DNA of 64,000 bases from a virus (IMGVR_UViG_3300026189_000003:1-64000), one strand, 5' to 3'. Shown: positions 6,958 to 32,130, counted from the stretch's first letter. A program made the numbers and translations. Notes: generated from the sequence alone by a model not told the origin.

Positions 6958-7494
6958 ATGCAGAAATTTACTGATTTACTTGCTGTCGTAGGATTTTTAT
7001 TCATATTGTTATTTGCCGGCAAAGGCAGTGCAAACGAACAGCAATACAAAGAAGATTTTGTAAAACACATAAAGAGTTGTCATGCTTATTATTACAACCA
7101 ACTTCATCCTAACTCTGAATTTGTATTACCAGTACAACTTGCGGTCGGTGTTGCTATACACGAAAGCGATTGGGGTAATTCAAGATTTGCACAAGAAGGC
7201 TACAACTACTATGGCATCAGATCATCAAGCAATGATCCAGATGAGTACATGGTACCTAAGTATGCACCAAACGTCAAGGTAGCAAAATATCTACACAATT
7301 GCAATAGCACTTTTGCATTTATTGATCTTATGATTGGCAGTGGACACTATGCCGAAGCAATGAATATAATCAAGAACAGTGATAAAGATCATTTACCATG
7401 GATAGAAATTTTAAGATCGATCAATGTTAAGTATAGTGTTTCAGAAAACTGGCCAGGAAAAATAGCTTTTATAATTAAATCTTTAGAGACCTAA
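6958..7494 (+). CDS. Glucosaminidase (GH73/Bax-like) peptidoglycan hydrolase
   Basis: AIHESDWGNSRFAQEGYNYYGI and YS motifs; signal peptide. Confidence 0.85.
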   Translation: MQKFTDLLAVVGFLFILLFAGKGSANEQQYKEDFVKHIKSCHAYYYNQLHPNSEFVLPVQLAVGVAIHESDWGNSRFAQEGYNYYGIRSSSNDPDEYMVPKYAPNVKVAKYLHNCNSTFAFIDLMIGSGHYAEAMNIIKNSDKDHLPWIEILRSINVKYSVSENWPGKIAFIIKSLET

Positions 7495-8215
7495 TAATTA
7501 AATCAGCAATAACAGAGTTACCTTTTTTATCAACATGGTAACCTTCATCGATAATATATTTTTTAAGATCTATTTCTTTTTCAATAACTAATTTGTTATC
7601 TAGATTGTCAGGCACAAAAAGATCGTTAAGCCAAAAAATATGCAATACTTTTTTGTTAATTGATTTAACATACATATCACAATATTCAATAGTTTGATTA
7701 TACTTGTTGAACATCAGCGGATGAAGTCTTTCATGCTCTAACCAATATTTTACTCTGGCAATTATTTGGTCTTTTTTAAGATTACTTTTCCTTTGTATTT
7801 CACCAAACATATGATCTATCAGATCTGACTGTTCATCGTTTGCTAGTCTTTCTGCCATTCCTACTGTTAAATGATAATAACTTTGTGTGTTGTCCCATAA
7901 CTGAATATAGTTGTCATACACGTCATGGTCTCTGGTAATTTTTTGATACTTTGCTTTATCAGAACACCACATTAACATTCCTCTGTCCGGTGTAGTGTGT
8001 TGTATGACATACACATCAGGATCGTATTTGCCATGTATATATTTTAATGTGTCTGGGTAGTTGACCCAACTAGCACCTTCACGGCCTGCATTAATAACTT
8101 GATTTTCAGTGTTGTTTTCAGATAAATTATAGTGTACTATATACGGATAAGTATTAGTGTGAGAAAGATTATGACCATGAGTCCAACTGCAACCTATAAA
8201 CGATATTTTTAACAT
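7475..8215 (-). CDS. SGNH/GDSL-like hydrolase paralog 1
   Basis: FIGCSWT block I, INAGREG block II, C-terminal DEGYH. Confidence 0.7.
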   Translation of the reverse strand: MLKISFIGCSWTHGHNLSHTNTYPYIVHYNLSENNTENQVINAGREGASWVNYPDTLKYIHGKYDPDVYVIQHTTPDRGMLMWCSDKAKYQKITRDHDVYDNYIQLWDNTQSYYHLTVGMAERLANDEQSDLIDHMFGEIQRKSNLKKDQIIARVKYWLEHERLHPLMFNKYNQTIEYCDMYVKSINKKVLHIFWLNDLFVPDNLDNKLVIEKEIDLKKYIIDEGYHVDKKGNSVIADLIIRSLKI

Positions 8216-9395
8216 GAACGATAAATTACCTCAAAATTTTTGTATTCTACCATGGACTTCTTTAGAAGTTCAACCAAATGGAACTGTAAAACCATGTTGT
8301 ATGTATAACAGTACATTAAAAAAACCAAATGGTCAAGAGTATTTAATACAAAAAGATGATATTGATGATATCACTAATAGTGATGAAATGCAAACAATAC
8401 GTAAACGTTTTCTAGCAGGAACACAACCACGTGGTTGCCATAGATGCTGGATGGAAGAACTATCTGGTAAAAAATCCAAAAGAGTTAGAGATAATCAAAA
8501 ATATCAACATCATATAAAAGATAAAGTAATATTTGCAGAACAACAAAAACCAAGATACTTAGATTTAAAGCTAGGTAATATATGCAATTTGAAATGCAGA
8601 ATATGTTCTCCACAATATAGTTCCAGATGGATAACTGAACAAAAAAGATATGATAAGATCGACGGGATTGAAAACGATTATTCAAGACTTGATTGGCCAG
8701 AAAAATCAGAACATTTTTGGGAAACAATTGAAAGTGTTATGCCACACCTAGAACATTTAGATTTTACAGGTGGTGAACCGTTTATGATAAAAGAACATTT
8801 TGCATTGCTTGAAAAAATTATAGATAGAGGATATGCAAAAAATATTTCATTGCATTATAACTCAAACGGAACACAGTTACCATTACCGGCACTTAAAAAC
8901 ATTTGGCCTAATTTCAAATATGTTGATGTGCATTTCTCAATTGATGGTATAAACAAACAGTTTGAATATCAAAGACATCCAGCTAAATGGACAGATGCTA
9001 TATCTAATATGAGTGTGTTTAAAGAATATCAAACACCAACTTTTGATTTATGTATATGTCACACTGTTAATATTTTTAATGTTTTTTATCTTCCGGAATT
9101 TTTAGATTGGACTAAAAAGTTTGGCATGAAAGTTTATCTTAACAATTTACATGAACCAAAACACTACAACATCACTTGCCTACCATATGGTGTTAAATTA
9201 ATGATTAAACAGAAACTTGAAGAATACAAAGGAATGAATTTAAGCAATGTAGTCAACTTCATGATGTCTGGCGATAATGTACAACATTTCAAACAGTTCC
9301 AACATCATACTACGAGAACTGATATCGTTAGACACGAAACATTTGACAAAGTCTTTCCTGAGTTATCAACAATGTTTCAAGGAGTAATAGCATGA
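8214..9395 (+). CDS. Radical SAM protein with N-terminal twitch/SPASM-like Cys domain
   Basis: CNLKCRIC, GGEP; N-terminal CILPW..PCC..CHRCW. Confidence 0.92.
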   Translation: MNDKLPQNFCILPWTSLEVQPNGTVKPCCMYNSTLKKPNGQEYLIQKDDIDDITNSDEMQTIRKRFLAGTQPRGCHRCWMEELSGKKSKRVRDNQKYQHHIKDKVIFAEQQKPRYLDLKLGNICNLKCRICSPQYSSRWITEQKRYDKIDGIENDYSRLDWPEKSEHFWETIESVMPHLEHLDFTGGEPFMIKEHFALLEKIIDRGYAKNISLHYNSNGTQLPLPALKNIWPNFKYVDVHFSIDGINKQFEYQRHPAKWTDAISNMSVFKEYQTPTFDLCICHTVNIFNVFYLPEFLDWTKKFGMKVYLNNLHEPKHYNITCLPYGVKLMIKQKLEEYKGMNLSNVVNFMMSGDNVQHFKQFQHHTTRTDIVRHETFDKVFPELSTMFQGVIA

Positions 9396-9577
9396 AATCA
9401 GCAGAATTAAATTCAGCTAATATGCATAAAGAATCTGACAGCTATTGTGCCAATTGTGGACGCCCAGAACATAGTAATCCTTTATGGGAACAAATGTTGG
9501 ATGGAGAAAATAAACCAGTAATGATTGAAGTTTGTAAATACTTTCGGAAACAAGTTGAAGGAAAAAAAGATGATTAA
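9392..9577 (+). CDS. Small Cys/His protein
   Basis: CANC..H..C; ATGA coupling. Confidence 0.65.
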   Translation: MKSAELNSANMHKESDSYCANCGRPEHSNPLWEQMLDGENKPVMIEVCKYFRKQVEGKKDD

Positions 9578-9682: not shown

Positions 9683-9886
9683 ATGGCAAAAAGCTCAAAG
9701 AAAACATTTGAATTAAAAATGTTAGTACCAGAAGAAAACAAACCAGATACAGGAACAAGATACTATGTTCGTAAGCCTACTAAAGGTGAAAAAAGAACAA
9801 TGAAAATAAGACAAAGAAAATACGATCCTGTAATTAGAAAACACGTTTGGTTTGTAGAAAAGAAAATGCCAAAGCACTCGGCCTAA
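9683..9886 (+). CDS. rpmG: 50S ribosomal protein L33 (bL33), zinc-independent form
   Basis: TGTRYY..K and RKYDPVIRKHVWFVEKK L33 signature; no CxxC. Confidence 0.9.
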   Translation: MAKSSKKTFELKMLVPEENKPDTGTRYYVRKPTKGEKRTMKIRQRKYDPVIRKHVWFVEKKMPKHSA

Positions 9887-10341: not shown

Positions 10342-10665
10342 ATGAAGATCCCACCATATGATGAGGATCTAATGTGGGGCGACAGTTGGGCATATGATGA
10401 CTGTCGTTTAGAGAACAATGGTATTATTCCTCAGACATACGGATACAATAAAAAATTCAAACACGATGTTGAAGTACAGCACCCTGAACAATTAGGAAGA
10501 TGCATCGATTGGTGTATTGATAATTGTAAACACAAATGGGGCTGGTATCATGATAGTTTGCCTCTACCAAGAGTATCATTAGAGAACCACGGAATGGAAT
10601 CACGTTCCTTTTTAAGTTTCTCGAACAAAAAAGAAGCTTTCATGTTTAAAGTAGCTTGTCTGTAA
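10342..10665 (+). CDS. Hypothetical phage protein
   Basis: ORF directly after the lipoprotein. Confidence 0.75.
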   Translation: MKIPPYDEDLMWGDSWAYDDCRLENNGIIPQTYGYNKKFKHDVEVQHPEQLGRCIDWCIDNCKHKWGWYHDSLPLPRVSLENHGMESRSFLSFSNKKEAFMFKVACL

Positions 10666-10789: not shown

Positions 10790-11821
10790 ATGTTTTCATT
10801 AATCAACATACCTTACATTCATACACTTGAAATAGAGCCAACTACATCTTGCAATGCAGGTTGTCCGTACTGTGGTAGGCACGTTCAAGGCACTAGTGAT
10901 GTTATTAAAGATTTGTCAACTGAACATTTACCAGTACACCTATTACAAAAAATAAAAGAACAATTTGATTTGTACCAAGGAGCAAAAAATGTTGGAGTAT
11001 GGTATTGTGGTAACTATGGTGATTCATTAATGCATCCAGAATTTGAACAGCTATTCAAGTACTCAGCTGAAAACTTTAAAGCAGTAGGTGTACATACTAA
11101 TGGCGGAGCTCGTGCAACTAACTTTTGGGAAAACTTAGGCAAAGTTTGTAAACAGTATGGTAATGCATCAATAACATTTTGTATAGATGGACTTGAAGAT
11201 ACAAATCATTTATACAGAAGAAAAGTAAAATGGAAAACATTAATGTCTAATGTTAAAGCCTTTATTAGTAACGGTGGATATGCCAATTGGAAAATGATAG
11301 TATTTGATCATAATAAGCATCAGGTTGAAGAAGCCAAAGCATTATCAAACAGTTTAGGCTTTCATGACTTCTCTCCGGAAATAAGCACTAGAGAAGTTTT
11401 ACCTAATGAAGAATACAAAGAAGTTAGTGCAGTTGCTAAAAAGAAAACCGAAATACAAATTCAAAAAGCTAAAGAAATAAATCAAACAAAATCAGAACAG
11501 TCTTGTATTTCTTGTAAAGGTATTGAAGCTCACAATATGTATCTAAATTCTAAAGGTAGAATTTGGCCTTGTTGTTATATGTCAGAAGATTATGATTTAA
11601 CAATACAGCGACTAGAAAAGAAAGAACCATGGTTAGCTGAACACTACAAAAATGATTTTAACAATTTTAATACACGTTCTTTGCAAGAAATATTTAATGA
11701 ACCTGCATGGAAAGAAATAACAGATGCTTGGACTACTCGTAAACGTGAGTTAAACAGATGTTGGAAGAGTTGTGCTGATGCTAGATGGAAAGTTTCTAAT
11801 ACTGTAGATTACTTTATGTAA
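10790..11821 (+). CDS. Radical SAM protein with C-terminal SPASM/twitch domain
   Basis: CNAGCPYC, GNYGD, HTNG; C-terminal CK..WPCC..CWKSC. Confidence 0.92.
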   Translation: MFSLINIPYIHTLEIEPTTSCNAGCPYCGRHVQGTSDVIKDLSTEHLPVHLLQKIKEQFDLYQGAKNVGVWYCGNYGDSLMHPEFEQLFKYSAENFKAVGVHTNGGARATNFWENLGKVCKQYGNASITFCIDGLEDTNHLYRRKVKWKTLMSNVKAFISNGGYANWKMIVFDHNKHQVEEAKALSNSLGFHDFSPEISTREVLPNEEYKEVSAVAKKKTEIQIQKAKEINQTKSEQSCISCKGIEAHNMYLNSKGRIWPCCYMSEDYDLTIQRLEKKEPWLAEHYKNDFNNFNTRSLQEIFNEPAWKEITDAWTTRKRELNRCWKSCADARWKVSNTVDYFM

Positions 11822-13029
11822 TTTGGCAGGTCGTGTAATTCTGGAAATATATCACGCCATTTTTCATTTCTTAACTGATCCAATCTTTCAGTTGTTTGAT
11901 ACCACTCTTTAATTTTATGTGTATAGTCTGCTTCATCTAAGAAGTTAATTAATGCCTCATATCTTTTACTTTTGTTTTTAGTATTTGCATTCATCCATTC
12001 TTGAGCTTTACGATATTTTTCTCTTACTTGATCTTTCATGTGTTCTGGTAATATTTGTATTCTTAAATGTGCTGGTGTTAACAATGGATTGATCAAACTA
12101 CCTTCATCTTGTATCCAACCTTTTTTGTACCAATCAATATGAAAATCAGGCACGTGATAACTGTTGAATACATCTAAACAAGTTGCTAAAAAGAAGTAAG
12201 CTCTAGGACAAACTTCAAACATTCTTTTTCTATTTGCTTCTACTTGCTCCCAGTTTTGTCCTGAACGCAAGAATTCTCCTCGTTTATGACTAGCGTCTAA
12301 ACTACCACCAATTTCTATAAACTCAAATTTATCCCATTCCTTCATTACATCAATATCTTTGTAAGTCATTTGACTAAAGTTAGTATTGTATTTTAACTTA
12401 ACATGAAACATTTTTTTCTCAACAAGACGTTTTAGTATTCTATAGTGTTCTTCCATTATTAATGGTTCACCACCTGCAAAATAAATTTCTTCCAGACCAT
12501 CCATGTAAGGCTCTACTTTTTCCCAGAATGTTTTTTCGTCTTTGTAAGGTCTAATAATTTTTTTATGATCAGGTTTACCATACACTTTAGTATGATCCTC
12601 ATACCAGCTTGAACTTAACTCCGGGCCGCACGTTCTACATTTGAAGTTACAAATATTTGAGAATCTAAAATCAATATAAGGTAAATTAACTTTGTCAACA
12701 GATCCATCTTCTTTCGTTGACTCAACAACATCCCAATGATTAGCTAGATGTTTATTTGACCATTGTCTAGTTGTAGAAATATTATTTCTTTCCATTTCCA
12801 TACATCTAGTACATATCTTATTAACTTTACCAGCAAGTAAATCTTTCCTTAATTTTTTTTGCTGTTCACTGTTCCATGCTTGTTCTAGGCTAACGTTTTT
12901 TAAGTTACCCATTGGCATATCACTTGGACTCATACAGCAAGTTAGTATTCTTCCATCTGGCCACGTGTGTAAATGCGTCCACGGAATCATACAAAATGTT
13001 TTTGATTCTAGGGTTTCTTTTTTATTCAT
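11809..13029 (-). CDS. Radical SAM protein with N-terminal twitch domain
   Basis: CNFKCRTC, AGGEP; CMIPW..TCC..CTRC. Confidence 0.92.
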   Translation of the reverse strand: MNKKETLESKTFCMIPWTHLHTWPDGRILTCCMSPSDMPMGNLKNVSLEQAWNSEQQKKLRKDLLAGKVNKICTRCMEMERNNISTTRQWSNKHLANHWDVVESTKEDGSVDKVNLPYIDFRFSNICNFKCRTCGPELSSSWYEDHTKVYGKPDHKKIIRPYKDEKTFWEKVEPYMDGLEEIYFAGGEPLIMEEHYRILKRLVEKKMFHVKLKYNTNFSQMTYKDIDVMKEWDKFEFIEIGGSLDASHKRGEFLRSGQNWEQVEANRKRMFEVCPRAYFFLATCLDVFNSYHVPDFHIDWYKKGWIQDEGSLINPLLTPAHLRIQILPEHMKDQVREKYRKAQEWMNANTKNKSKRYEALINFLDEADYTHKIKEWYQTTERLDQLRNEKWRDIFPELHDLPNYIK

Positions 13030-14035
13030 TTAAATTGTTTAACCAACTGTCAATATGTAAGTTTCTAAATGTATTGCTGTTGTGTTTAATTTTATCAAGA
13101 ATAATTTTGTCATGATATATTTCTTGCCATTCAGTAGGTGTATAATTCATTAGCTTTTCTACTTCTGAGTACATTGCTTCAAATCTTAATTCTTTATCTA
13201 AACTGTCAAAGCTGTGATCATATAATTCTGTGTATGGTTCGAATCCGTGATCTATTAAAAACTGATAACTGTTTTTTGTACCATGTAATATAAAAATTTT
13301 ATTGTATAAAATTGGTTTCCAAACTTTCTCTGTTAAAAATATGCTTGTATCACTATCAATACTTTCGTTAACAATTTCAAATCCAGCATAAGGATATTGC
13401 GTTGGTAATATTTCTTGGTTCTGTCCTGCATCAATTGATTCATTGTCAAAATCCAGTACTAGATCTTCTCCCTGCCAAACACCATTACTAAAATATTTTT
13501 TAGGTAGTTTACCATAACGATTAACCCAACTTATCCATCCATCATCTTGTAAATTGTTTTCATATAATCTATTAACTATTTTAGCTCTGTGTGGTTTAGA
13601 TGCACCATTTAAACAAATAAACTTTTTAACTTTTTCATCTACACTCTTTGGTTGTTTTACTGTTTTGTTTTGTATAACATCTCTAGTTCTTATTAACAAG
13701 CTCAATGGATATGATAATGCTGTTATTGGAACTACTCTTTCTGCTGTACCTTTAAACCAAGTATTGATATTGTCTACTAAATTAACATCTGCCATGACTA
13801 GAAATGTTTGTTCTTTTGGCCAGTTACGAATTGAATCATGCAGTTCGGTTAAAAAGTTATCTTTTTGTAAAAAATGAACCTCACCTTCTAATTCTCTTTT
13901 GATAATAATATTATGTGTGTCTATTTTATCTTGATTGTTTTGTATCCACCATCTTACTTTAGCTAGTCCTTCAGAAACTAGACTTTCACTGTCTATATCA
14001 AATATCTGATTTTCTCTAATCATATTGTTTTCCAT
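13022..14035 (-). CDS. GT-B/GT10-like 'ITEK' protein paralog 1
   Basis: FICLNG..KPHR; FEIVNES..FLTEKVWKPI..GF. Confidence 0.6.
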   Translation of the reverse strand: MENNMIRENQIFDIDSESLVSEGLAKVRWWIQNNQDKIDTHNIIIKRELEGEVHFLQKDNFLTELHDSIRNWPKEQTFLVMADVNLVDNINTWFKGTAERVVPITALSYPLSLLIRTRDVIQNKTVKQPKSVDEKVKKFICLNGASKPHRAKIVNRLYENNLQDDGWISWVNRYGKLPKKYFSNGVWQGEDLVLDFDNESIDAGQNQEILPTQYPYAGFEIVNESIDSDTSIFLTEKVWKPILYNKIFILHGTKNSYQFLIDHGFEPYTELYDHSFDSLDKELRFEAMYSEVEKLMNYTPTEWQEIYHDKIILDKIKHNSNTFRNLHIDSWLNNLNE

Positions 14036-14532
14036 TGTTCTGAGATGTCACTAGTATTTACTGATTTTAACTTGTCTAATCTTTTGGTGTGTCTTCCACC
14101 TTCAAATTTGGTAGTAAAAAATGCTTGTACTAATTGCCAAGCCATATCTTTAGTTACAAAGTCTGCACCCATACATAGAACGTTAATGTTGTTATGCTTA
14201 CGGGCCATTACAACATCTTTTACTGTTCTACAGTTTGCCGCTCTAATATGAGGATATCTATTAGCCGCAATAGTTACACCAAATCCCGAGCCACATATCA
14301 AAATACCATGTGATTGATATTCTAAATCATTTGCTACTTCTTTTACAATGTCTGGATAATCAACTGACTTTTTTTTATCGTATGCACCTACATCTTGTAT
14401 TACACAGATATTAAATTTTGTAATTTCTTCATCTGTATCTGGAACCATAAATTTATAAACGTAATCTTTAAGGTTTACGCCTCTGTGATCACTTCCTATG
14501 GAAACACTATTTTGTTCTATTTTTCTAGCCAT
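14020..14532 (-). CDS. rpiB: Ribose-5-phosphate isomerase B
   Basis: SDHRG, VDYPD, ILICGSGFG, AANR, ARKHNN, FEGGRH. Confidence 0.95.
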   Translation of the reverse strand: MARKIEQNSVSIGSDHRGVNLKDYVYKFMVPDTDEEITKFNICVIQDVGAYDKKKSVDYPDIVKEVANDLEYQSHGILICGSGFGVTIAANRYPHIRAANCRTVKDVVMARKHNNINVLCMGADFVTKDMAWQLVQAFFTTKFEGGRHTKRLDKLKSVNTSDISEQWKTI

Positions 14533-15836
14533 AATAATAACTTATTTAAGTACTCACTTCTATTTAACTTTAAAAAATGCTCTCTATTGTACAACAAAGT
14601 ATCAAATATTTTGTAGTATTCTCTATGCAATCCATCGATGGGCCAATGACATAACCGTTTAATATTTTCTAAAACCATATCGGTTCTTTTAGCACTATCT
14701 GTTTCTCTATCGTAGCTTTCGTTTAAAAATGCCCAATTATTGAAAGTTCTGTATCCGCAATCTTGCAAATAATCTAATGTGCCTCGAGATCCTAAAACTA
14801 CAAAAGGATGTAGTTGTAATATAGGTTGATATACCTTTTCAGTAATAAACAAAGGATCTCCTGGTTGACTATTACTTACTGTTTCGTTAACAATACTGAA
14901 GTATGTATTATAGTAATGTTTAGCTTTCATTCTTCTTTGATTTAAACTTTCGTTTATTGATGATCCATCATGATCAAGAACAATAGGAGTTTTTTGTAAA
15001 AACTCTTCCATTTCTTTTAGTACGTTTTCCTTGTCTTCTCGTTGAGTGAATGTTTCAGTATTGGTTGGAACACCTGGTGTAAAATACCTATTTAAAAAAC
15101 TTATGTAACCAAACTCATCTAGACCTTCTTTGTATAATTGACTAGTTAGATATATTCTGTGTGGTCTTGGATTTGCATTTCTACAAACAAACTTTAATGG
15201 TCTGTGTCTATCCTTGTCGATTAACTTTTCGTCGACTAATTCATCTTCTACTTTTATTTCACGCATTCTTTTTGTATTAAAATACATTCTATCAGTTTCG
15301 AGCCAATAGTTTAGCTCAAATATATTCAATCCAAATGTTTTTATTTTGCAATCAATCTTTTTCTTTTTACAATAGTATTTGAAGTTTTCTTCAATTCTTA
15401 AATCACCAAATACTAAATGAACTTTCTCTTCAGGTATACCTTTATCACCTAAGGTGTATAGTATGTCATCAATAAATCTTGGCATATCTAGATGAAAGCC
15501 TTCGCTTGGAAACCATAATAATATTTTTACATTATCTTCTATTCGTATTGCTCTTAGAAAGTCTTCGTCAATGTAATGAAACACATTTTCATAAAAGAAA
15601 CTTAGATCAATCCATTCGGGTTGTATATGATACCAAAATGTTTGACTGCTTTTTATTGAATGATCTAAGTTACACTTGTTATACTTTACACCAGCATAAT
15701 CTAGTAATTCTTCTAAGTATTGAAATTTTACATTGCCGTAATTTTTATAATACTTGTCATTTCTTTTCCAATAAGGAATACTGTTTGGCAAGTAACCTTT
15801 ATCTTTGTCATGTGTTTGATATAATAAATTAATCAT
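14517..15836 (-). CDS. GT-B/GT10-like 'ITEK' protein paralog 2
   Basis: FVCRNANPRPHR; FSIVNET..FITEKVYQPI..HPFVVLG..GYRTF. Confidence 0.6.
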   Translation of the reverse strand: MINLLYQTHDKDKGYLPNSIPYWKRNDKYYKNYGNVKFQYLEELLDYAGVKYNKCNLDHSIKSSQTFWYHIQPEWIDLSFFYENVFHYIDEDFLRAIRIEDNVKILLWFPSEGFHLDMPRFIDDILYTLGDKGIPEEKVHLVFGDLRIEENFKYYCKKKKIDCKIKTFGLNIFELNYWLETDRMYFNTKRMREIKVEDELVDEKLIDKDRHRPLKFVCRNANPRPHRIYLTSQLYKEGLDEFGYISFLNRYFTPGVPTNTETFTQREDKENVLKEMEEFLQKTPIVLDHDGSSINESLNQRRMKAKHYYNTYFSIVNETVSNSQPGDPLFITEKVYQPILQLHPFVVLGSRGTLDYLQDCGYRTFNNWAFLNESYDRETDSAKRTDMVLENIKRLCHWPIDGLHREYYKIFDTLLYNREHFLKLNRSEYLNKLLLWLEK

Positions 15837-16368
15837 TGTATACTGTGGTGTGTACTATTGTGTTTTCTAATTGTGTTTTGTTATAAGTTTCAATGTATGC
15901 TAAATCTAATAATGCTGTTACACCTAGTACTTTTGCTCCGGAGCTTTCACAAAGTTTTTTACTTGCTAATAAACTTCCGCCAGTTGCAACAAGATCGTCC
16001 GCTATTATAACACGACTAGTATGACCTAGTATACCTTTTTGTAGGACTAATGTATTCGATCCATATTCTAAATTATAGCTTTCTTTGTATAGTTCGCCTG
16101 GATATTTTGAGTCTTCTTTCCTAATCATTACAAATGGAATCATTAACTCTTTAGCTAATGCACTACCAATAACAAACCCACGACTTTCAACACCAGCAAC
16201 ATGAGTTGGGTAACTAAAGTTTGAATCGCTAGTAATTTTTTTAGCTAATTCGTCAATAACTATTCCAAATACTTCACTAGCAAATAAACTATTCAAATCG
16301 TAAAAATTAATTCCTTCTTTAGGATAATCTGGCACTGTTCTAATATGTTCTAGTATTTTAACTTGCAT
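15829..16368 (-). CDS. apt: Adenine phosphoribosyltransferase
   Basis: PDYPKEGINFYD, GVESRGF, YNLEYG, PRPP motif IIADDLVATGGS. Confidence 0.93.
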   Translation of the reverse strand: MQVKILEHIRTVPDYPKEGINFYDLNSLFASEVFGIVIDELAKKITSDSNFSYPTHVAGVESRGFVIGSALAKELMIPFVMIRKEDSKYPGELYKESYNLEYGSNTLVLQKGILGHTSRVIIADDLVATGGSLLASKKLCESSGAKVLGVTALLDLAYIETYNKTQLENTIVHTTVYND

Positions 16369-19012: not shown

Positions 19013-19013
19013 T

Positions 19014-23170: not shown

Positions 23171-23328
23171 TACTTTGCTTTTGGTCTTCCTTGTCTTCTT
23201 ACCCATACGTTTTTTATTTTGTCTGGGTCGCTTTTTTGGCCAGGAGGACAAATTGTAATTTTATTGCCTTTGGCTAGCCATTCTTCAATTAGTCTTTTAT
23301 CTTCAGTTCTGTTATCTTCTTCTGACAT
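23170..23328 (-). CDS. SutA RNAP-binding-domain-like small protein (52 aa)
   Basis: MSEEDNRTEDKRLIEEWLAKGNKITICPPG...; SD AAGGA; not in ORF track. Confidence 0.6.
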   Translation of the reverse strand: MSEEDNRTEDKRLIEEWLAKGNKITICPPGQKSDPDKIKNVWVRRQGRPKAK

Positions 23329-23697: not shown

Positions 23698-25221
23698 TTA
23701 TTCCTCCTTATATTCTTGTGATCCTGGATTTGCTCCTTGTGGTTTTAATACCCATCCTTCTTTTTTTGCTCTCTGTTCTAGCTCGTCTTTATGTATTGCT
23801 CCTTTGGTTGCGTCTCCGTCAAACAGTCCTACCTGTTTGGTTTCTGTTTCTGGAATACTAACAAACCATTTTTGTAATTCTTTATGTTTGAATGTTTCTA
23901 AAAAATTCTTATTTCTTCTTGTATCGTACTGTAAGTAAAACGTTTTAAAATCTCTCCATCTAGATATTTCACTTGATGTATTTGCATGACCACTTTCCAT
24001 TACTCTTGTATACTCTATCAATCTTCTTATGCCGTCAATTTCCATGTCATGCACTAATGCATTATCTTTGTTGTCAGCAATCCATTTTTCTAAAGCATCT
24101 GCTCTCTCATTTCTAATATGATTTGGTAATGTAACTATACTTTGAAAACTTGGAAATCTTAATATATTAAAGCTCATAGTTGGAAAATGTTTTCCATACG
24201 TTTCTTTCAAAGTAACCATTTCGTCCATAAACTCCGGCATACTAAACAATGACAATGCATTAATGGTCATCATCATATGAAACTCACGTACATTTCCTTC
24301 TTGTAAAAACATATGAATATTTTTTAACCATGTATCCCATACCATACCATCTCTTACGTATTCTGCTTGTACTCCGTATGCTTCGTTACTAGTATACAAA
24401 TCAAATTGTTTAAAACTGTGCGTAGCATCAACCAGTCTTTTCATTAGTTCTGGCTTGGCACCTAGATTAGAGTTAACACTAAACCTTACATTACAATCTG
24501 GATTTTTATTCCACCAATCAATTAATCTCCAAAAGTCTTGTGACATAGTTGCTTCACCACCGGTTACTCTTAGTTCTTCTAATGTATCTTTTAGTTCCAT
24601 ATCCCACCATTTAAAGAAAGCTTCAATATATGGATTACCTTCATTCTTTTTACCGTACTTCATTGCCCACGAACCATCTTGCTGAAATGCTCTTGCACCG
24701 TCACTAACTAAATTTTGATATGCACCGTTTTTCTTAATATCGTTTTGCCATTGTGTAGAAAAACTTGCATTGCAATAACTACAAGCGAAATTACAATTGG
24801 CATCAAAGGCAATTTCTAATGTTTTTAAAGGCACGTCATCTGTATAACCAAATGTATTTTTGGCTTCGTTTAATTCATCTTCTGTGTATATTACACTTTT
24901 ATAAGTTCTATCTGAAACATAATCTTGACCTAAGTCTTCTACTTTCCAGCAATAATCACATTCTTTAGGACGCTCTCCATCGAGCATTTGCTTACGTACC
25001 ATTTTTTTATAGCTAGTATTGTGTATGGCTTTTGGATTGGCTAACACTTCTTCTACAGGTATTTTGTGTGCAGGCGGATGATGACAACTAGCAGTCGATC
25101 CTGAGTTCAACCATACAGTAGCATTGTACCACTTGGCACCACAGAAACTTGGAGATATTTTATTGATAGTTCTATCTCTCCACTGTTGATATGACTCGTC
25201 TTTTTTCTTACTAATTCCCAT
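23698..25221 (-). CDS. Radical SAM protein with N-terminal twitch domain
   Basis: CNFACSYC, TGGE; FCGAKW..SCHHP..ECDYCW; start moved to MGISK. Confidence 0.92.
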   Translation of the reverse strand: MGISKKKDESYQQWRDRTINKISPSFCGAKWYNATVWLNSGSTASCHHPPAHKIPVEEVLANPKAIHNTSYKKMVRKQMLDGERPKECDYCWKVEDLGQDYVSDRTYKSVIYTEDELNEAKNTFGYTDDVPLKTLEIAFDANCNFACSYCNASFSTQWQNDIKKNGAYQNLVSDGARAFQQDGSWAMKYGKKNEGNPYIEAFFKWWDMELKDTLEELRVTGGEATMSQDFWRLIDWWNKNPDCNVRFSVNSNLGAKPELMKRLVDATHSFKQFDLYTSNEAYGVQAEYVRDGMVWDTWLKNIHMFLQEGNVREFHMMMTINALSLFSMPEFMDEMVTLKETYGKHFPTMSFNILRFPSFQSIVTLPNHIRNERADALEKWIADNKDNALVHDMEIDGIRRLIEYTRVMESGHANTSSEISRWRDFKTFYLQYDTRRNKNFLETFKHKELQKWFVSIPETETKQVGLFDGDATKGAIHKDELEQRAKKEGWVLKPQGANPGSQEYKEE

Positions 25222-25222
25222 A

Positions 25223-25420
25223 TTAAAAACTCCAATAAAATTGTACTTGAGGATTCTCAACACAATCTTCTTTAAAACCATCTAATGTTTCTAACATATT
25301 TTCTGTTTTTATTTCTGTATCTTTGTTGTAGAATTCACAAGAAAATTTTTGTTTCACGCCACAACCATTAATTAAAAAACTAAAAGCTAACAAAACTATT
25401 ATACTACTTTGCTTTGCCAA
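25223..25420 (-). CDS. Small lipoprotein
   Basis: Lipobox LINGC; probable TTG start. Confidence 0.6.
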   Translation of the reverse strand: MAKQSSIIVLLAFSFLINGCGVKQKFSCEFYNKDTEIKTENMLETLDGFKEDCVENPQVQFYWSF

Positions 25421-25559
25421 CTTTGCCAGTCCGCGAATCAAATTTTCTCTTACGTTTCTTCTGGTGTTTCTGTTTTTTATTTTCTCTTCGACCATCAGTT
25501 AATATTTTCTTTATTTTAGCAAATGATTCTTCATCCATGCCATCAAATAATTTAGCCAT
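25404..25559 (-). CDS. Small basic protein (51 aa)
   Basis: MAKLFDGMDEESFAKIKKIL...KKRKRKFDSRTGKVGKAK; TAATG coupling; not in ORF track. Confidence 0.65.
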   Translation of the reverse strand: MAKLFDGMDEESFAKIKKILTDGRRENKKQKHQKKRKRKFDSRTGKVGKAK

Positions 25560-25783
25560 TAAACAATACCGTTCCAAGGACCAAGTTCTTTTTCTTTTTT
25601 AACTTTTGGCTTTGCTTTAGAAACTACTTTAAAATTTAAAAGTTTTCTTTTGCCAGCACTAGTTACTATTACTGGTTGTTTATTTTCGTCTAACTCTATG
25701 CTTTTAATTGTTTTAACACTATTACGAAATTTACCAACAGCAATCTTATCGCCGACACTGATTTTTACGTTATAAGTTTTCAT
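25559..25783 (-). CDS. Hypothetical basic protein
   Basis: Coupled ORF. Confidence 0.7.
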   Translation of the reverse strand: MKTYNVKISVGDKIAVGKFRNSVKTIKSIELDENKQPVIVTSAGKRKLLNFKVVSKAKPKVKKEKELGPWNGIV

Positions 25784-27174
25784 ATACTACCTTTACATTC
25801 ATTGTAAAATTCTTCCAATTCTGGAAAAGTTTTACTGAAACTTTTGTTTCTTCTTTTGTCATACTCATCAACATATGATACAAAATCTTTTCTTACTTGT
25901 TTTATATTTAACTGCTCTTGTGGGTTAGGCCCAGCGGCAATATACTCTTGAAATCGTTTTAATTTAGCTATTTCAAAGTCAAAAAAGCCCTTATATGCGT
26001 TAGTATGTGTTTCTGCATTATCTAACATAATTTGCACAGAAGGATCAAGCATTTTAGAATAACTAGGATCAGCAACAACACCACTTAGATAACTAGGATG
26101 TCTTAGTATTGCTGTGTCTAATGTTATTGGTACTCTACGTTCATCGCTGTAAAATTCTCTTTTTAATGGATGTATTATATCCACAAGTTTATGAAAGTTA
26201 GGTAAACTTAATAATCCAGTCGTACACATTATTGTTACTTTTGTTCTTGGTAGTTCTGTTAATATACGACATATATTATCATACCACTGTTTAAAGTTCA
26301 ACCCATCTCTTATATATTCTGCTTGTTCTCCAAAAGTATCAACTGAAGTATACAGTCTTGTAACTCCAATTTTATTATCTAATGTAATACGTTTCATTTT
26401 TTCAATGTATTGATCAAAAAGTTTATCTGGTACACAACCATTTGAGTTTATGCTTAATTCTAGTTCTGGTCTTGGATTGTTGTTGACATAATCTAAAACT
26501 TTAAATGTATCTTTTGATAGTAAAGGTTCCCCGCCTGTAATTCTTAAAACTTGGAGGGTTTTGTACAGGTCGGGAAACCACTTCCACCATGCCTCAACAT
26601 AAGGATTATGTTCACGGTGTGGAATCGGTAACTTGCCTTCTTTTCGAAGCCAATGTAAATTATTAAAATTATCGCTAGTTGGATATGCTCCTTCTGATTG
26701 TATTTCTTCCATCCATGAGCTACTAAAAGCAGGACTACAATAAGCACATTTTAAATTACAAACATTTGAAAAACTAACTTCGACATAAGTTGGATTCACA
26801 TTTTCTACGCCAACCATTTCAGAAGTTTCTTTTAGAAAAGGTTCGGCCCAAGATTCATGTGACTTAGAACTTCTATCGCTGTAGTGTTCTGGACCTAAGT
26901 CTTCTACGTTCCAGCAGTATTGACATTCAGGTGGACGTACACCTTTCAACATTAATTCTCTTTGTGATTTTTTATATTCTGTGTTGTGTAGGGCCGAAGG
27001 ATTGTTTTTTAATTCTTCAAGTGGTACTTGATGTGTTCTTGGATGATGACAACTATGAGTGTGTCCGTATTGCAGATGAATTGTAGATTGATACCATTTA
27101 GCTAAACAAAAACTAGGTGAAACTTTGTTTAACCTATCCCTGGTTTGTTTAATTTTAATAACTTCATCTGTCAT
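25780..27174 (-). CDS. Radical SAM protein with N-terminal twitch domain
   Basis: CNLKCAYC, TGGEP; FCLAKW..SCHHP..ECQYCW. Confidence 0.92.
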   Translation of the reverse strand: MTDEVIKIKQTRDRLNKVSPSFCLAKWYQSTIHLQYGHTHSCHHPRTHQVPLEELKNNPSALHNTEYKKSQRELMLKGVRPPECQYCWNVEDLGPEHYSDRSSKSHESWAEPFLKETSEMVGVENVNPTYVEVSFSNVCNLKCAYCSPAFSSSWMEEIQSEGAYPTSDNFNNLHWLRKEGKLPIPHREHNPYVEAWWKWFPDLYKTLQVLRITGGEPLLSKDTFKVLDYVNNNPRPELELSINSNGCVPDKLFDQYIEKMKRITLDNKIGVTRLYTSVDTFGEQAEYIRDGLNFKQWYDNICRILTELPRTKVTIMCTTGLLSLPNFHKLVDIIHPLKREFYSDERRVPITLDTAILRHPSYLSGVVADPSYSKMLDPSVQIMLDNAETHTNAYKGFFDFEIAKLKRFQEYIAAGPNPQEQLNIKQVRKDFVSYVDEYDKRRNKSFSKTFPELEEFYNECKGSI

Positions 27175-27705: not shown

Positions 27706-28701
27706 CTATATAGATCTGTATTTGATTCTGCCTTGCGAATCTTTTTCAGTTATTAGTGTACTTCTAGGTGGATTGTAATAAACTTTTTTAAAAAATTTAC
27801 TTCCACTTTCGTCAATTTCAGCTACAGGAATATTAAGTTTTTTTCTTAAACTGTCTCCTAAATCTATACTTGCATTTAACAGTTTATCTTTGTCCCAGCT
27901 GTATTTTGATTTAATACAATGTTCATTGCCACCAGCAAACTTTGGCATAATTTCATTTGTCCAATATTCAGTATGCCATTTAAAATCAGCAACGTTCACA
28001 AAATCAAAATTTGGATCTAAATTTGTTAAGTAACATCCTAATCTTGTTCCATACATTGCCCACAGACCATTTTCAACGTCTCTACCAATATTGCTCCAAA
28101 CTAATAATCTTTGAAAGTTTTTATTATGCAAACTCTTTTCAAAATTATCTGCTTCTACTTTGTGTCCTCTGTCTAATGACATTTTAACACCTTCTCTAAA
28201 TCCTGCTCTGTAAGCCTGATAAGGTGTTGAATTGTTTATTACATAACTAAATGCTTCGTTAAACTGTATATAATTTAAATCCCAACAGAAGTCAACTTTC
28301 GAACCTTCATCTTCTGCAATCTCGTGTGTCTTCATATCAAGTACGTACTGTACTGGCCAATTTTTAATTCCACCATTACCATACACTAGTCCATTAATGC
28401 TGTTAACACCACACCAGCTAATAACAGAATTATCTAAGTCAACATCACTTTCAGAAAAGTCTATTACTGTATCAAAAAATTCTGGTTTAACAATGTTATC
28501 TCCATCGATACTAATAAATCTATCGGTATCACTTTGTCTAGCACATTCTTTATGGGCCGCATCAGAACCTAAAACTCCATGCACACGTTTTGCCCATGGA
28601 CATACTTGTTTTAAATTAGCCCAGTTTTCTTCCATATTAGGTTCATCAAAACTAATATAAAAAGTATCTATTTCCGTAACATCAATAATATTTTTACTCA
28701 T
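27706..28701 (-). CDS. GT-A (GT2-like) glycosyltransferase-like protein
   Basis: FYISFDEPN, RVHGVLG..AHK, FISIDGDN (DxD), AYRAGFREGVK. Confidence 0.6.
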   Translation of the reverse strand: MSKNIIDVTEIDTFYISFDEPNMEENWANLKQVCPWAKRVHGVLGSDAAHKECARQSDTDRFISIDGDNIVKPEFFDTVIDFSESDVDLDNSVISWCGVNSINGLVYGNGGIKNWPVQYVLDMKTHEIAEDEGSKVDFCWDLNYIQFNEAFSYVINNSTPYQAYRAGFREGVKMSLDRGHKVEADNFEKSLHNKNFQRLLVWSNIGRDVENGLWAMYGTRLGCYLTNLDPNFDFVNVADFKWHTEYWTNEIMPKFAGGNEHCIKSKYSWDKDKLLNASIDLGDSLRKKLNIPVAEIDESGSKFFKKVYYNPPRSTLITEKDSQGRIKYRSI

Positions 28702-28858
28702 GATCTGCCTCTTGCTTCTTTTGTAAAAGTTTTCTTTCTAAAAGTTTTTCTTCCCATTTCATAATCATTTCATTAATCTTACCCATAGGATAATTTTTGT
28801 GTACAAGCTCGGCCCTATACTCTTTTAATTCTTCTAATAATTCTTCTATATCATTCAT
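28694..28858 (-). CDS. Small helical protein (54 aa)
   Basis: MNDIEELLEELKEYR...; overlaps both neighbours; not in ORF track. Confidence 0.6.
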   Translation of the reverse strand: MNDIEELLEELKEYRAELVHKNYPMGKINEMIMKWEEKLLERKLLQKKQEADHE

Positions 28859-29450
28859 CTGTTATCTCACTGTAGGCGTAATCGTTGTAAATTCTTTTTG
28901 TATATACACAATGATCACTTTGTTCTGTACTATATGAAATAGTAACTTTCTCTTGTAACAATAATTGTAGTGTTGGTATTTTACAATAGCTTATTAAGTT
29001 GTGCGGATCATTGTCGTAGCATAGCACAAAGTCTAATACCTTTGCTCCTTCAACTTCTATATTTTCAACGGGCGTTGTACTATCAATACCGTATTTCTTA
29101 ATTAGATAATCTTGAAAGTTCTTTTCCATCATAAATGTTATTTTGTTTTCTTTTATACTATTAATTATCCTTATTTCTCCTAGGTCTTTACGCGGTACCT
29201 TATAAAGTCTATCATCTAAAAAATGTAATGCTATATTGGTTCTTTTTAGCTTTAAAGCCCATGAACCGTTTTCAACATCTTTTATGACTGTGTAGTTGGC
29301 TGTGTTTTTACGTCCTTCAATAAACTCTAGTGCTTCAGTATAAGGAATTTCAAACCATGTTTCTCCAAATGCTGGTTTGTTTCTCATTATGCCATTAATG
29401 TCTCGAGATTCTAAATCAAATAATACGTATCTAACTAAATTTTCTTCCAT
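28851..29450 (-). CDS. Hypothetical phage protein
   Basis: Coupled ORF. Confidence 0.75.
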   Translation of the reverse strand: MEENLVRYVLFDLESRDINGIMRNKPAFGETWFEIPYTEALEFIEGRKNTANYTVIKDVENGSWALKLKRTNIALHFLDDRLYKVPRKDLGEIRIINSIKENKITFMMEKNFQDYLIKKYGIDSTTPVENIEVEGAKVLDFVLCYDNDPHNLISYCKIPTLQLLLQEKVTISYSTEQSDHCVYTKRIYNDYAYSEITDE

Positions 29451-29863
29451 TATAAATCCTCAAGATCTTGTAGGTGCGTATCTAATGCCTTGACTGCCAC
29501 TTGTAATTCAATAATATATAACGCCAACGAAATTCCAAATGCAACTAAACTTGTTGTGAATGTTGCACCAAAGTGCCAATACTGTTCTCTAAATGCAAAG
29601 TATATAGCTACTAAATTAATAATAAATGCTAAAGCGGCCAAAGTCGATGTAGCACGATTAAGTACCAATCTTTTTCTTAATATACTAATTTGTTTTAGAT
29701 ATCTATTGGTTGCTTTATCTTTACGTGTTAACTTTTTTGCAATAACATCGTCGTGTATTTTTCTAATCAATGTAGCAAGAGTGGTATATCTGTTACCAAA
29801 TGATATCATCATTAATGGTATAGCAGGAAATAAAGCCGCTGGTAATAAAAATATGTTGTCCAT
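29450..29863 (-). CDS. DUF2721-like membrane protein
   Basis: PAALFPAIPLMMISFGNRY..IR..H..QI..LRKR; 3 TM segments. Confidence 0.7.
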   Translation of the reverse strand: MDNIFLLPAALFPAIPLMMISFGNRYTTLATLIRKIHDDVIAKKLTRKDKATNRYLKQISILRKRLVLNRATSTLAALAFIINLVAIYFAFREQYWHFGATFTTSLVAFGISLALYIIELQVAVKALDTHLQDLEDL

Positions 29864-30714
29864 TATAATCCTAACTTTTTTTCTAGTTTAACAATAATCT
29901 CATCAGTTAAAAATTCTTTGTCGTGATAATGAAATGGTAACGTTTGTACGTAGTTACCAACTTTCAATTTACAATCTTTTGAATAATAGTAAGGTAAGAA
30001 GTTTGTCCATTTCTCCGAATACTCTCTGCTGAAACCTTGTGCTCTTGATTTCATATGAACAAAGTTAGGATACGATATATGTTTATTACATATTTCATCT
30101 TCCACACCAAGTATTTTTCCTGCTAAAGCATATACTACATCTGCACTAAGAAAACTTTGTCTAGGTGGTATTAAAAAATCTTCTTTGTATATTTCCCAAT
30201 CTCTAAAAATATTTTCAACTAATTTAAAATATTCAAATGTAAAGTCACTGTTTTTATTAAAATGAAAAAATGCTGTATATACATTTGGTAAATTGTTTGA
30301 TACAAATGTTTGTCTATAATAACTATTGTCTGCTTTTTCATTTCTAAAACTGGAAACATCACAACAAGCAGTTACATCTCTTGCAGAGAAATATTCCCAC
30401 CAGTGACTCACGTCATCTGTAAACAACATATCAGTATCTAAAATAACTGTATGATCGTACGGAGTCATATGATAGTATTTCCATTTATTATGTATTTTCC
30501 AATTTTCTAGTTCTGCATCATCGTTAAAAGGAATATCTATAATATTATCAAATACTGTTTTATATTTGTCAGGTACTATAGTATTTTTATCAACAGCAAT
30601 AGATATTCTTCTAACTTTCTTTTGTGTTTGTGCAATACTCAAAGCTAAGGCATACGCCATTCTTACATAATCATAGTTGCTGTTTTGTGCTATTACCAAG
30701 TAACCTTTTTTCAT
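29863..30714 (-). CDS. GT-A (GT8-like) glycosyltransferase
   Basis: YVRMAYALALSI, TPYDHTVILDTD (DxD), FVHMK. Confidence 0.7.
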   Translation of the reverse strand: MKKGYLVIAQNSNYDYVRMAYALALSIAQTQKKVRRISIAVDKNTIVPDKYKTVFDNIIDIPFNDDAELENWKIHNKWKYYHMTPYDHTVILDTDMLFTDDVSHWWEYFSARDVTACCDVSSFRNEKADNSYYRQTFVSNNLPNVYTAFFHFNKNSDFTFEYFKLVENIFRDWEIYKEDFLIPPRQSFLSADVVYALAGKILGVEDEICNKHISYPNFVHMKSRAQGFSREYSEKWTNFLPYYYSKDCKLKVGNYVQTLPFHYHDKEFLTDEIIVKLEKKLGL

Positions 30715-30715
30715 A

Positions 30716-31252
30716 TTAAAATAAATTCTTTCCAGTTTTCTTTGTTATCCATGACTTTGCACGTTCTAGATATGATTCCCATTGTTCTAATGTAATATCA
30801 TATTCAAAGTTTTGTGTAGTTTCATTTACTTGTAGTTCTTTAGCACCATTCTTTAAATGAAATTTTCTAGCCATATCAGTTAATGGTGACAGTGTAACTA
30901 ATCTTGTTAAGTGTTTAGAAGCACTAACCATTTTATAAACTTCATTTACTATTTCTTTTCCGCCGCCTCTTTTATTCGCCCAAACAGTATATGCAATAGC
31001 AATTGTACCTTGTACTCCTGCTCTATGTATTGCTTGACTATGTGCATCTTTACTGAAAGCATCTAGTTCTTCAACAGAAGTAGGTACTTCATTTGTAAAT
31101 GCAAAACACATGACAGCCGCAATATCTCCTTCGCTATCTTTTAAACCATAAATTTTTCTACCGTAAGTTTTTCTAAATTCTAAATCTAATTCAGGTCTTA
31201 CAGGATCTTGTTTACAATCAATCCAATCTAGTTCAATTAATTCGTAACTCAT
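30716..31252 (-). CDS. GNAT-like fold protein
   Basis: YTVW..RGGGK acetyl-CoA-type loop; ARKFHLKNG. Confidence 0.45.
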   Translation of the reverse strand: MSYELIELDWIDCKQDPVRPELDLEFRKTYGRKIYGLKDSEGDIAAVMCFAFTNEVPTSVEELDAFSKDAHSQAIHRAGVQGTIAIAYTVWANKRGGGKEIVNEVYKMVSASKHLTRLVTLSPLTDMARKFHLKNGAKELQVNETTQNFEYDITLEQWESYLERAKSWITKKTGKNLF

Positions 31253-32130
31253 TTGTTTTGTTCTATTATTCCTTCTGCCATTCTGTTTAGTGCAAATTTA
31301 TTAAGCACATGAATATTTGTGTCTTTAATTTTACAAGCCACATAGTTTCCACGTTGACTTGGTTTTTCTATTAAAAATTTAAAGTGATTTCCATTAGTAC
31401 ATTCTATTAAATCATCAGCACCAATTGAATGTTGTAAAAAAGGTACTGGTAATGATTTTACAAATTTCTCATTTTTCATACCATTCATTATATGTACAGC
31501 AATACTAAATGCATGATCGTTTCTAAAATTAGGAACAACAAAGTCATATAACATTGCATAGTAATTCCAGTTCAGATAAATGTGTTTGATTGTATCAAAG
31601 AATATTTGATTGTCTTCTGTTTTTCTAAAAAATACTGCTGTGGCCCAATAAAAATCAATTGACCTATCATCGAGTCTATTAAACTGTTTATCAATCCTGC
31701 TAGGCATAATATCACGTGATTCATTATTAATTTGTAAATCATATTTTAGTTCCCAGCATTGATCTAAATCATTATTACCAATTAGGTAATCAGCATCTAT
31801 TAATAGAGTTTCATCGTACGGACTTAAATTATATGCTTCGTGTCTATTAATATTATAAAATTTTTCAAGTGTTTTTGAATAACTGGTATCGTAATATCTT
31901 TTAGTATTACTTGTATTTCTTCTTTTTATAACTTTTATATTTTCAATTTTACTATCAACAAAATCTTTATCAAATGTTTTATATAACCAATTGACTGTTC
32001 CGGTATCTGTAATTAGTGTTACATGATTATTTTTCATGTGCTTCTTAATTAAACAGGCATTGGCCAAAGCAATCTTACCATAATCAATGCTACGGTTATT
32101 GTGGGAAAATATTAAATTTCCTCTGCTCAT
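31249..32130 (-). CDS. GT-A (GT8-like) glycosyltransferase
   Basis: SPYDETLLIDAD (DxD), FRNDHAFS, HVLNK; paralog of 29863-30714. Confidence 0.7.
   Translation of the reverse strand: MSRGNLIFSHNNRSIDYGKIALANACLIKKHMKNNHVTLITDTGTVNWLYKTFDKDFVDSKIENIKVIKRRNTSNTKRYYDTSYSKTLEKFYNINRHEAYNLSPYDETLLIDADYLIGNNDLDQCWELKYDLQINNESRDIMPSRIDKQFNRLDDRSIDFYWATAVFFRKTEDNQIFFDTIKHIYLNWNYYAMLYDFVVPNFRNDHAFSIAVHIMNGMKNEKFVKSLPVPFLQHSIGADDLIECTNGNHFKFLIEKPSQRGNYVACKIKDTNIHVLNKFALNRMAEGIIEQNK

Follow-up and report, generated by a model that had tools for sequence, protein, structure and literature searches.

The first 64,000 nucleotides (nt) of the 107,640-bp IMG/VR virus record IMGVR_UViG_3300026189_000003, referred to here as the window, contain an island of about 25 kb rich in paralogous genes for radical SAM enzymes, SGNH-like proteins and glycosyltransferase-like proteins. 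Our analyses indicated that the phage enzyme island is real, conserved and widespread, and that it is a variant of virus-encoded glycan synthesis. The island very probably performs carbohydrate chemistry. Our preferred reading, to which we assign a probability of about 0.4, is that it is a cytoplasmic module for the assembly and tailoring of a glycan, with the fibre and baseplate proteins of the phage as the leading guess for the acceptor. An earlier interpretation made from the nucleotides alone (the sequence-only reading) had proposed an island of this composition, and nearly every item was borne out, with open reading frames (ORFs) lying where it had placed them.

Enzyme families of the island

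Five radical SAM enzymes were encoded, in agreement with the earlier count. Full-length scores for four of these (311 to 399 bits) exceeded the curated cut-off of 170 bits for the NCBIfam family NF033640 (N_Twi_rSAM, twitch domain-containing radical SAM protein), while the fifth, encoded by 10790-11821, scored 43.6 bits, is not a member and has the usual order of a radical SAM domain followed by a SPASM domain. In the N-terminal-twitch (N-twitch) enzymes, the auxiliary domain is N-terminal to the core, with Pfam SPASM matches at residues 10-79 and 13-76, and invariant cysteines (C13, C32, C73 and C76) are followed by a CxxxCxxC motif (C127, C131 and C134 in the numbering of the 11809-13029 product) and a GGE motif. 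The N-terminal domain aligned weakly with the twitch domain of BtrN (E = 0.018), and PDB matches of the radical SAM core were to 8vpo, a cyclopropyl synthase for a ribosomally synthesized peptide with post-translational modifications (RiPP), as the best (E = 3.7e-8), to viperin and MoaA, and to BlsE (E = 0.011). BtrN, DesII and BlsE are radical SAM enzymes acting on sugars. In these proteins, too, a radical SAM core is joined to a twitch auxiliary cluster, but their auxiliary domain follows the core rather than preceding it and the similarity is weak. A literature search for the N-twitch or NF033640 family name found no paper naming the family, and we know of no characterised member. A fifth N-twitch gene (93972-95288; hidden Markov model [HMM] E = 3e-104) and another radical SAM gene (95343-96431) were present outside the window in the same record (G000:C1), 60 kb away.

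The five proteins that had been classed as GT-B-like from an 'E[ST]..TEK' motif formed one family in all-against-all BLAST (pairwise E of 1e-9 to 1e-22) and shared an invariant E...EK, with E277, E293 and K294 of the C-terminal domain unchanged throughout. An AlphaFold2 model built on 49 homologs predicted that this family has a GT-B fold (two Rossmann-like domains), and the AlphaFold and Foldseek comparison that the sequence-only reading had proposed upheld its assignment: the best 50 VIA matches were all GT-B glycosyltransferases (Z of 9.0 to 13.0, ∼290 residues aligned), and the Foldseek PDB list was headed by the same class. T4 beta-glucosyltransferase was the best VIA match (Z of 13.0) and T4 alpha-glucosyltransferase scored 12.3, values tied with those of many other GT-B enzymes. 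Searches at the level of sequence were negative. None of the 49 family members matched any glycosyltransferase Pfam model, those of GT1, GT4 and GT10 included, at E ≤ 1, the five-paralog profile had no match among PDB sequences at E ≤ 10, and the paralogs had no sequence match in Pfam, NCBIfam or PHROG. Membership of the GT10 alpha-1,3-fucosyltransferases, a reading of the 'TEK' motif, had no support from Pfam, where Glyco_transf_10 gave no match; the Helicobacter pylori FucT (Z of 10.8) and FUT9 (Z of 10.5) ranked under several other GT-B enzymes yet within ∼2 Z units of them. Members fused to UDP-glucose dehydrogenase occur, and nucleotide-sugar-dependent transfer is suggested as the putative activity of the family. 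The family contains 14,380 clusters (50% identity) at E ≤ 0.001 and 4,927 at E ≤ 1e-30, with many tandem fusions. Ten clusters that were looked up were all unnamed or 'hypothetical protein', and no isolate phage in GenBank encodes the family.

Five SGNH-like proteins had also been predicted. Four were recovered by BLAST and share GxSFT ... GHP; the fifth was identified by hhalign as the product of 7475-8215, while an ORF at 22634-23251, tried as the fifth paralog, failed to align. For the modelled paralog, the best 50 VIA matches were all SGNH/GDSL proteins (Z of 14.1 to 9.5) and Foldseek matched TesA with a probability of 1.00. Among 15 family sequences, G16, S18 (the block I Ser), N51 (the oxyanion Asn) and H232 (the block V His) were invariant, and the Asp of DxxH was not conserved. 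The paralogs had no match to Pfam (Lipase_GDSL models) at E ≤ 0.01, and their profile detected only noise in the PDB.

Evidence for the three DxD proteins, which had been read as GT-A-like, was weaker. The motif was present in all, and two paralogs (29863-30714 and 31249-32130) may be GT8-like: D95 is invariant, mostly within LDxDM or LDxDY, and there was a borderline likeness to NleB and to glycogenin (E of 0.0019 to 0.02, covering the N-terminal 90 positions only). This pair had no match in Pfam. The third, 27706-28701, was tentatively assigned from its motif and the name of its Atlas cluster, and its family had no match in the PDB or Pfam. A GNAT-like protein had also been listed, and two weak but concordant leads, a profile match to malonyl-CoA decarboxylase (MCD) and the contents of its Atlas clusters, point to 30716-31252. 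In contrast, the 2OG-Fe(II) oxygenase of the sequence-only reading was not recovered: no HMM detected one, and 22634-23251, the candidate, has motif-level likeness to such enzymes without HMM or PDB support.

Recurrence of the cassette and its neighbours

Related viral loci were found with an alignment of the five GT-B paralogs. The cassette recurred gene for gene in nine further viral contigs, each paralog having one ortholog, at 45 to 90% identity in L009, L010 and L015 to L017 and at ∼40% in L011 to L014. One of the ∼40% contigs is part of a complete 328-kb genome with terminal repeats, in which the GT-B/SGNH/N-twitch block lies on the opposite side of the baseplate genes, indicating that this block moves as a unit. 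Among 77 viral loci with the GT-B family, N-twitch radical SAM genes (up to six) were present in 49, the SGNH family in 31 and several GT-B copies in 50; after dereplication at 70% identity, 26 of the 39 remaining groups had N-twitch genes and 18 had SGNH genes. Adjacent cassette genes were almost always co-oriented (172 of 177 pairs) and within 10 nt of each other (171 pairs), and SGNH genes were neighbours of GT-B genes in 38 cases versus 6 for radical SAM genes. The full triad was also found in a Haliscomenobacter metagenome-assembled genome. Synteny and co-occurrence in relatives, which the sequence-only reading had named as checks, were both found, and the evidence points to the core (GT-B, SGNH and N-twitch) being one system. 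Fibre genes and the GT-A trio were kept together at 30 to 40% identity in L061, L062 and L068, and the cassette adjoined baseplate or fibre genes wherever those were recognisable, including the baseplate genes of L011 to L014.

A Pfam scan covered 115 further ORFs taken from 12 diverse viral loci that carry the cassette. The commonest families were those of nucleotide-sugar and glycan enzymes: Epimerase (10 ORFs), GDP-mannose 4,6-dehydratase (GDP_Man_Dehyd; 9), RmlD and GT7 (6 each), UDP-glucose/GDP-mannose dehydrogenase (UDPG_MGDP_dh; 5), RmlC (3) and DegT aminotransferase (2), together with a B12-binding domain (PF02310; 6) and carbamoyltransferase (5). The richness of these neighbourhoods in nucleotide-sugar enzymes provides good support for carbohydrate chemistry. 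Bacterial N-twitch loci, many of them from Bdellovibrionota and Bacteroidota, had more than one radical SAM copy in 39 of 79 cases, and their neighbours included PhyH and WelO5-like oxygenases, GDSL lipases, GT1, GT2, epimerase, ABC_tran, ABC2_membrane, UbiA and methyltransferases. Vibrio phage K566 (L086), a jumbo isolate, carries three consecutive radical SAM genes at 161.5-166 kb of its record and a fourth nearby, interleaved with hypothetical proteins of 310 to 420 amino acids (aa) that had no match to the GT-B and SGNH profiles. This phage may offer a tractable system for studying the radical SAM family. Arrays of N-twitch radical SAM genes are also present in Vibrio phage K567 and Ralstonia phage RsoM2USA, and chromosomal copies were found in bacterial isolates such as Bdellovibrio sp. 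HCB2-146, Mangrovivirga halotolerans M17 and Marinigracilibium pacificum KN852.

The multi-step pathway of the sequence-only reading, building and tailoring an unusual glycan, is favoured by the folds, the 1:1 synteny and the nucleotide-sugar enzymes of other viruses, and stands as a prediction from sequence and structure. In such a pathway, the three GT-A-like and five GT-B-fold transferases, which are distinct and separately conserved paralogs, would add sugars stepwise from nucleotide sugars to an acceptor within the infected cell. The SGNH-fold proteins, mostly encoded beside a GT-B gene, and the GNAT/MCD-like protein would add or remove acyl groups. The N-twitch enzymes would abstract hydrogen from sugar carbons, leading to epimerisation, oxidation or deoxygenation in the manner of BtrN, DesII and BlsE. 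A bolder and rather doubtful extension is that the N-twitch enzymes are a new carbohydrate-editing class acting with the GT-B family and cytoplasmic SGNH acyl enzymes, and that aquatic jumbo phages coat their fibres or baseplate with a heavily edited glycan that would govern adsorption or protect the virion.

To our knowledge, no described system joins radical SAM arrays with eight transferases and five SGNH proteins, although virus-encoded glycan synthesis itself is known. The sequence-only reading was correct that no characterised pathway has this composition, but the type of island had already been described (PMC7029224): the host recognition cluster of pelagimyophages and cyanomyophages is a fibre-proximal hypervariable island that carries GT8-type glycosyltransferases as well as 'cassettes related to radical SAM proteins' (Zaragoza-Solas et al. 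2020). Here too, an island with glycosyltransferase and radical SAM genes lies next to a giant virion protein and tail fibres in a marine T4-like phage. That study did not perform a family-level analysis, however; the N-twitch, GT-B and SGNH paralog families are not defined there, the region is presented as variable rather than as a conserved operon, and the baseplate protein of the present phage is nearest to those of PA5oct- and SCTP-2-type jumbo phages rather than to that of HTVC008M.

Acceptor of the predicted pathway and alternative functions

Transmembrane (TM) or signal segments were absent from every island enzyme, indicating that all are soluble. Pfam scans of the island detected no initiating (phospho)glycosyltransferase, flippase, polymerase, ligase, Gtr/AT3-type membrane protein, export gene or lipid-carrier gene, and none of these membrane and export families ranked among the 25 Pfam families found most often in the viral neighbours (12 loci). 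Soluble enzymes without initiating or export machinery imply an acceptor in the cytoplasm or at the inner membrane face. The virion is our leading guess for the target, at somewhat less than an even chance. All genes from 11809 to 52764 are on the minus strand and most overlap or are <12 nt apart, as had been claimed for the coupling of the island with tail and baseplate genes at 11.8 to 52.8 kb, and the island adjoins fibre genes that are themselves next to the gene for the 3817-aa virion protein. Chloroviruses and mimiviruses provide examples of virus-encoded glycosylation. Glycans are also present on mycobacteriophage capsids and tail tubes (Freeman et al. 2023, as cited in PMC12619734). 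Such systems use soluble viral glycosyltransferases, at times with viral nucleotide-sugar enzymes, that act in the cytoplasm on structural proteins; they differ in having a small number of transferases and are not known to include arrays of radical SAM or SGNH genes, and the glycan of the present island is a prediction.

Promoter motifs bear on the timing of expression. On the minus strand of the window, ATAAATA was found six times (59904, 52790, 37335, 35518, 34793 and 5305), while the full motif TATAAATA was depleted overall (4 found versus 11.4 expected). Five ATAAATA sites precede the starts of structural genes (59892, 52764, 37299, 35488 and 34768) by 12 to 36 nt and, hence, look like T4-type late promoters. 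The island itself (7.4 to 32.5 kb) has no ATAAATA late motif and is headed by a sigma70-like promoter, and a similar site is present upstream of the L009 ortholog. The proposal that the glycan is placed on the virion is favoured in one respect, the adjacency to fibre or baseplate genes being kept in relatives, and weakened in another, as the promoters undermine the argument from linkage to tail genes.

Several points weigh against our reading of a glycan module acting on fibre and baseplate proteins. The absence of late motifs, compared with five at nearby structural genes, and the sigma70-like promoter indicate that island expression may precede virion synthesis. Adjacency is itself weak evidence, because the fibre-proximal region of T4-like phages is hypervariable and gathers unrelated genes (PMC7029224). 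Furthermore, the three main families are without a characterised activity, product or acceptor, the island of the source phage itself lacks genes for nucleotide-sugar synthesis, and the nearest PDB relative of the radical SAM core is 8vpo, a peptide-modifying radical SAM-SPASM enzyme.

A serious if unlikely rival is that the island remodels a glycan of the host envelope (O-chain, capsule or similar), with soluble enzymes acting on lipid-linked intermediates at the inner membrane, export by a host flippase or ABC system, and superinfection being blocked. The early-type promoter and lack of late motifs would fit this scheme, which is also how the glycosyltransferases of the host recognition cluster in pelagimyophages have been interpreted in print (PMC7029224), and the ABC_tran, ABC2_membrane and UbiA genes near bacterial N-twitch loci are of the expected kind. 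Its main difficulty is the gene content described above: every enzyme is soluble and neither the island (which also lacks GtrA/B-type proteins) nor the commonest viral neighbours supply the phosphoglycosyltransferase, flippase, polymerase, ligase or AT3 functions.

Appreciably less probable is a role in modifying proteins or peptides after translation by radical and acyl chemistry, or in making a small-molecule natural product, with the glycosyltransferases as accessories. SPASM/twitch radical SAM enzymes are often peptide maturases, and the match to 8vpo, the oxygenases (PhyH and WelO5-like) and methyltransferases beside bacterial loci, and small coupled ORFs such as 25559-25783 are consistent with this. 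However, neither a conserved precursor-like peptide nor a RiPP recognition element (RRE) domain was found, small ORFs not having been searched systematically across loci; the eight glycosyltransferase-like genes outnumber each other class, and nucleotide-sugar enzymes dominate the viral neighbourhoods. The 25559-25783 ORF (minus strand), previously unlisted, encodes a basic 74-aa protein, and its start and the radical SAM gene's stop overlap in ATGA.

It is very improbable that the island represents no single pathway and merely accumulated unrelated auxiliary genes through rounds of insertion and duplication: genes for lysis, bL33, APRT and RpiB do occur among the others, at positions that vary among relatives, but the GT-B/SGNH/N-twitch core retains its order and 1:1 orthology down to ∼40% identity and moves as a block across the baseplate genes, and all three families are found together in many distant viruses as well as in the Haliscomenobacter genome. 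Glycosylation of phage DNA for nuclease evasion, as with the T4 alpha- and beta-glucosyltransferases, is the least probable reading of all, for while the compact GT-B fold, the Z of 13.0 and an early-type promoter would suit it, the T4 enzymes show no detectable sequence similarity to the family, their Z values are shared with many GT-B enzymes that do not act on DNA, neither the 107-kb record nor two complete genomes with the cassette (328 kb and 216 kb) gave a ThyA-family hydroxymethylase match above cut-off, and five GT-B paralogs among eight transferases, with acyl and other tailoring enzymes, far exceed the needs of known DNA glycans. The absence of a base hydroxymethylase from complete relatives also weakened the DNA hypermodification alternative of the sequence-only reading.

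The glycan-assembly reading matters for several reasons. Uncharacterised as they are, the three core families abound in aquatic metagenomes, and the GT-B family has no Pfam model. Knowledge of the product would assign a chemistry to NF033640, would test the long-standing guess on the role of fibre-proximal glycosyltransferases in marine T4-like phages and could bring to light a layer of phage-host recognition not yet known in abundant ocean bacteria.

Other genes of the island and source of the record

Features of the window are collected in Table 1.

Table 1. Positions of island genes and adjoining features in the window
Position	Strand	Feature	Support and remarks
7475-8215	-	SGNH-like, fifth and divergent (GCSWT ... 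GYH)	hhalign vs SGNH family: probability 92%, E 5e-7; adjoins N-twitch gene in L010, L013, L014, L016, L017
8214-9395	+	N-twitch radical SAM (NF033640)	385 bits; Pfam SPASM 10-79, Radical_SAM 120-281
9683-9886	+	Ribosomal protein bL33 homolog, 67 aa	PDB match E 5e-6; no CxxC zinc motif; between radical SAM genes
10790-11821	+	Radical SAM with C-terminal SPASM	Pfam Radical_SAM 15-172, SPASM 242-328; homologs in 10 viral loci
11809-13029	-	N-twitch radical SAM (NF033640)	398.9 bits
13022-14035	-	GT-B-fold glycosyltransferase-like paralog	Family BLAST, motif, HMM E 1.6e-84; 1:1 orthologs in nine contigs
14020-14532	-	Ribose-5-phosphate isomerase B (RpiB)	NF004051, 141.9 bits (cut-off 135); in five relatives, position varies
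14517-15836	-	GT-B-fold glycosyltransferase-like paralog	Family BLAST, motif, HMM
15829-16368	-	Adenine phosphoribosyltransferase (APRT)	NF002636, 161.6 bits (cut-off 125); among relatives only in L009, different position
16358-17170	-	SGNH-fold paralog	Family BLAST, motif, HMM
17167-18111	-	GT-B-fold glycosyltransferase-like paralog	Family BLAST, motif, HMM
18095-19048	-	GT-B-fold glycosyltransferase-like paralog	Family BLAST, motif, HMM
19132-19902	-	SGNH-fold paralog, modelled	AlphaFold2, predicted local distance difference test (pLDDT) 88
19889-21079	-	GT-B-fold glycosyltransferase-like paralog, modelled	AlphaFold2, pLDDT 90, predicted template modelling score (pTM) 0.90
21076-21792	-	SGNH-fold paralog	Family BLAST, motif, HMM
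21789-22646	-	SGNH-fold paralog	Family BLAST, motif, HMM
23698-25281	-	N-twitch radical SAM (NF033640)	310.8 bits
25223-25495		Candidate lysis gene, 90-aa lipoprotein-like ORF	Lipobox-like LINGC; no BLAST homologs in related loci
25780-27174	-	N-twitch radical SAM (NF033640)	340.4 bits
27182-27694		GH108 endolysin	Unrelated gene inside island
27706-28701	-	DxD (VDGDN) protein, GT2-like by lead only	Kept in 15 viral loci; Atlas cluster named 'Glycosyltransferase 2-like'
28851-29450	-	Conserved protein, 199 aa	Same-position orthologs in L009, L010, L015, L016
29450-29863		Candidate lysis gene, 3-TM DUF2721 protein	No BLAST homologs in related loci
29863-30714	-	GT8-like GT-A protein, LDxDM motif	Family profile vs glycogenin E 0.002, NleB E 0.03
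30716-31252	-	GNAT-fold, MCD-like protein	Profile vs MCD 4ksa E 0.0055; Atlas clusters carry MCD and Acetyltransf_1; KRGxGK motif
31249-32130	-	GT8-like GT-A protein, paralog of 29863-30714	BLAST, alignment, family profile
32133-32495	-	Conserved protein, 120 aa	First gene behind island promoter; orthologs in L009, L068
32506-32534	-	Sigma70-like promoter heading island	TTGACA-17-TATATT with TG extension, 11/12 matches
32557-37299	-	Fibre genes	Fibre-like proteins within 33464-37299
37332-48785	-	Giant virion protein, 3817 aa	
48785-52330	-	gp6-like baseplate wedge	
52330-52764	-	gp25-like gene	

RpiB and APRT, both named in the sequence-only reading, scored above their curated HMM cut-offs. 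These may serve the supply of nucleotides and not the pathway itself, and APRT could recycle adenine released from 5'-deoxyadenosine, the radical SAM by-product. A PHROGs search of the uninformative ORFs gave nothing useful. The candidate lysis genes, including the endolysin, are scattered through the island and, like the bL33 homolog, are unrelated to its enzymes.

The record has a CheckV completeness of 29%, which at 107 kb implies a jumbo genome, and its source is an uncultured marine jumbo phage. The remainder of the record contains T4-type portal, capsid, sheath, terminase and baseplate genes. The endolysin gene had 80.7% nucleotide identity to gp192 of Pelagibacter phage HTVC008M, the sole nucleotide-level match to an isolate (megablast), whereas the baseplate wedge is nearest to those of the jumbo phages PA5oct (∼42% aa identity) and Salicola SCTP-2 (∼39%); closeness to HTVC008M was thus limited to the endolysin. 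A jumbo phage with a host or gene pool in common with SAR11 myophages is one possible source. A search for tRNA genes found none.

Three further ORFs were observed. The gene for a Cys/Trp-rich 107-aa protein (10342-10665, plus strand) sits immediately upstream of that for the SPASM radical SAM enzyme; the protein is kept in L009 and L013, but the pairing with the radical SAM enzyme is not constant. An unlisted 52-aa ORF at 23170-23328 (minus strand) overlaps the doubtful TTG start of 22634-23251. Lastly, 113-1054 (plus strand), ∼6.4 kb away from the island's end, encodes a 313-aa protein with a Pfam Polysacc_lyase match (E = 5.5e-12).

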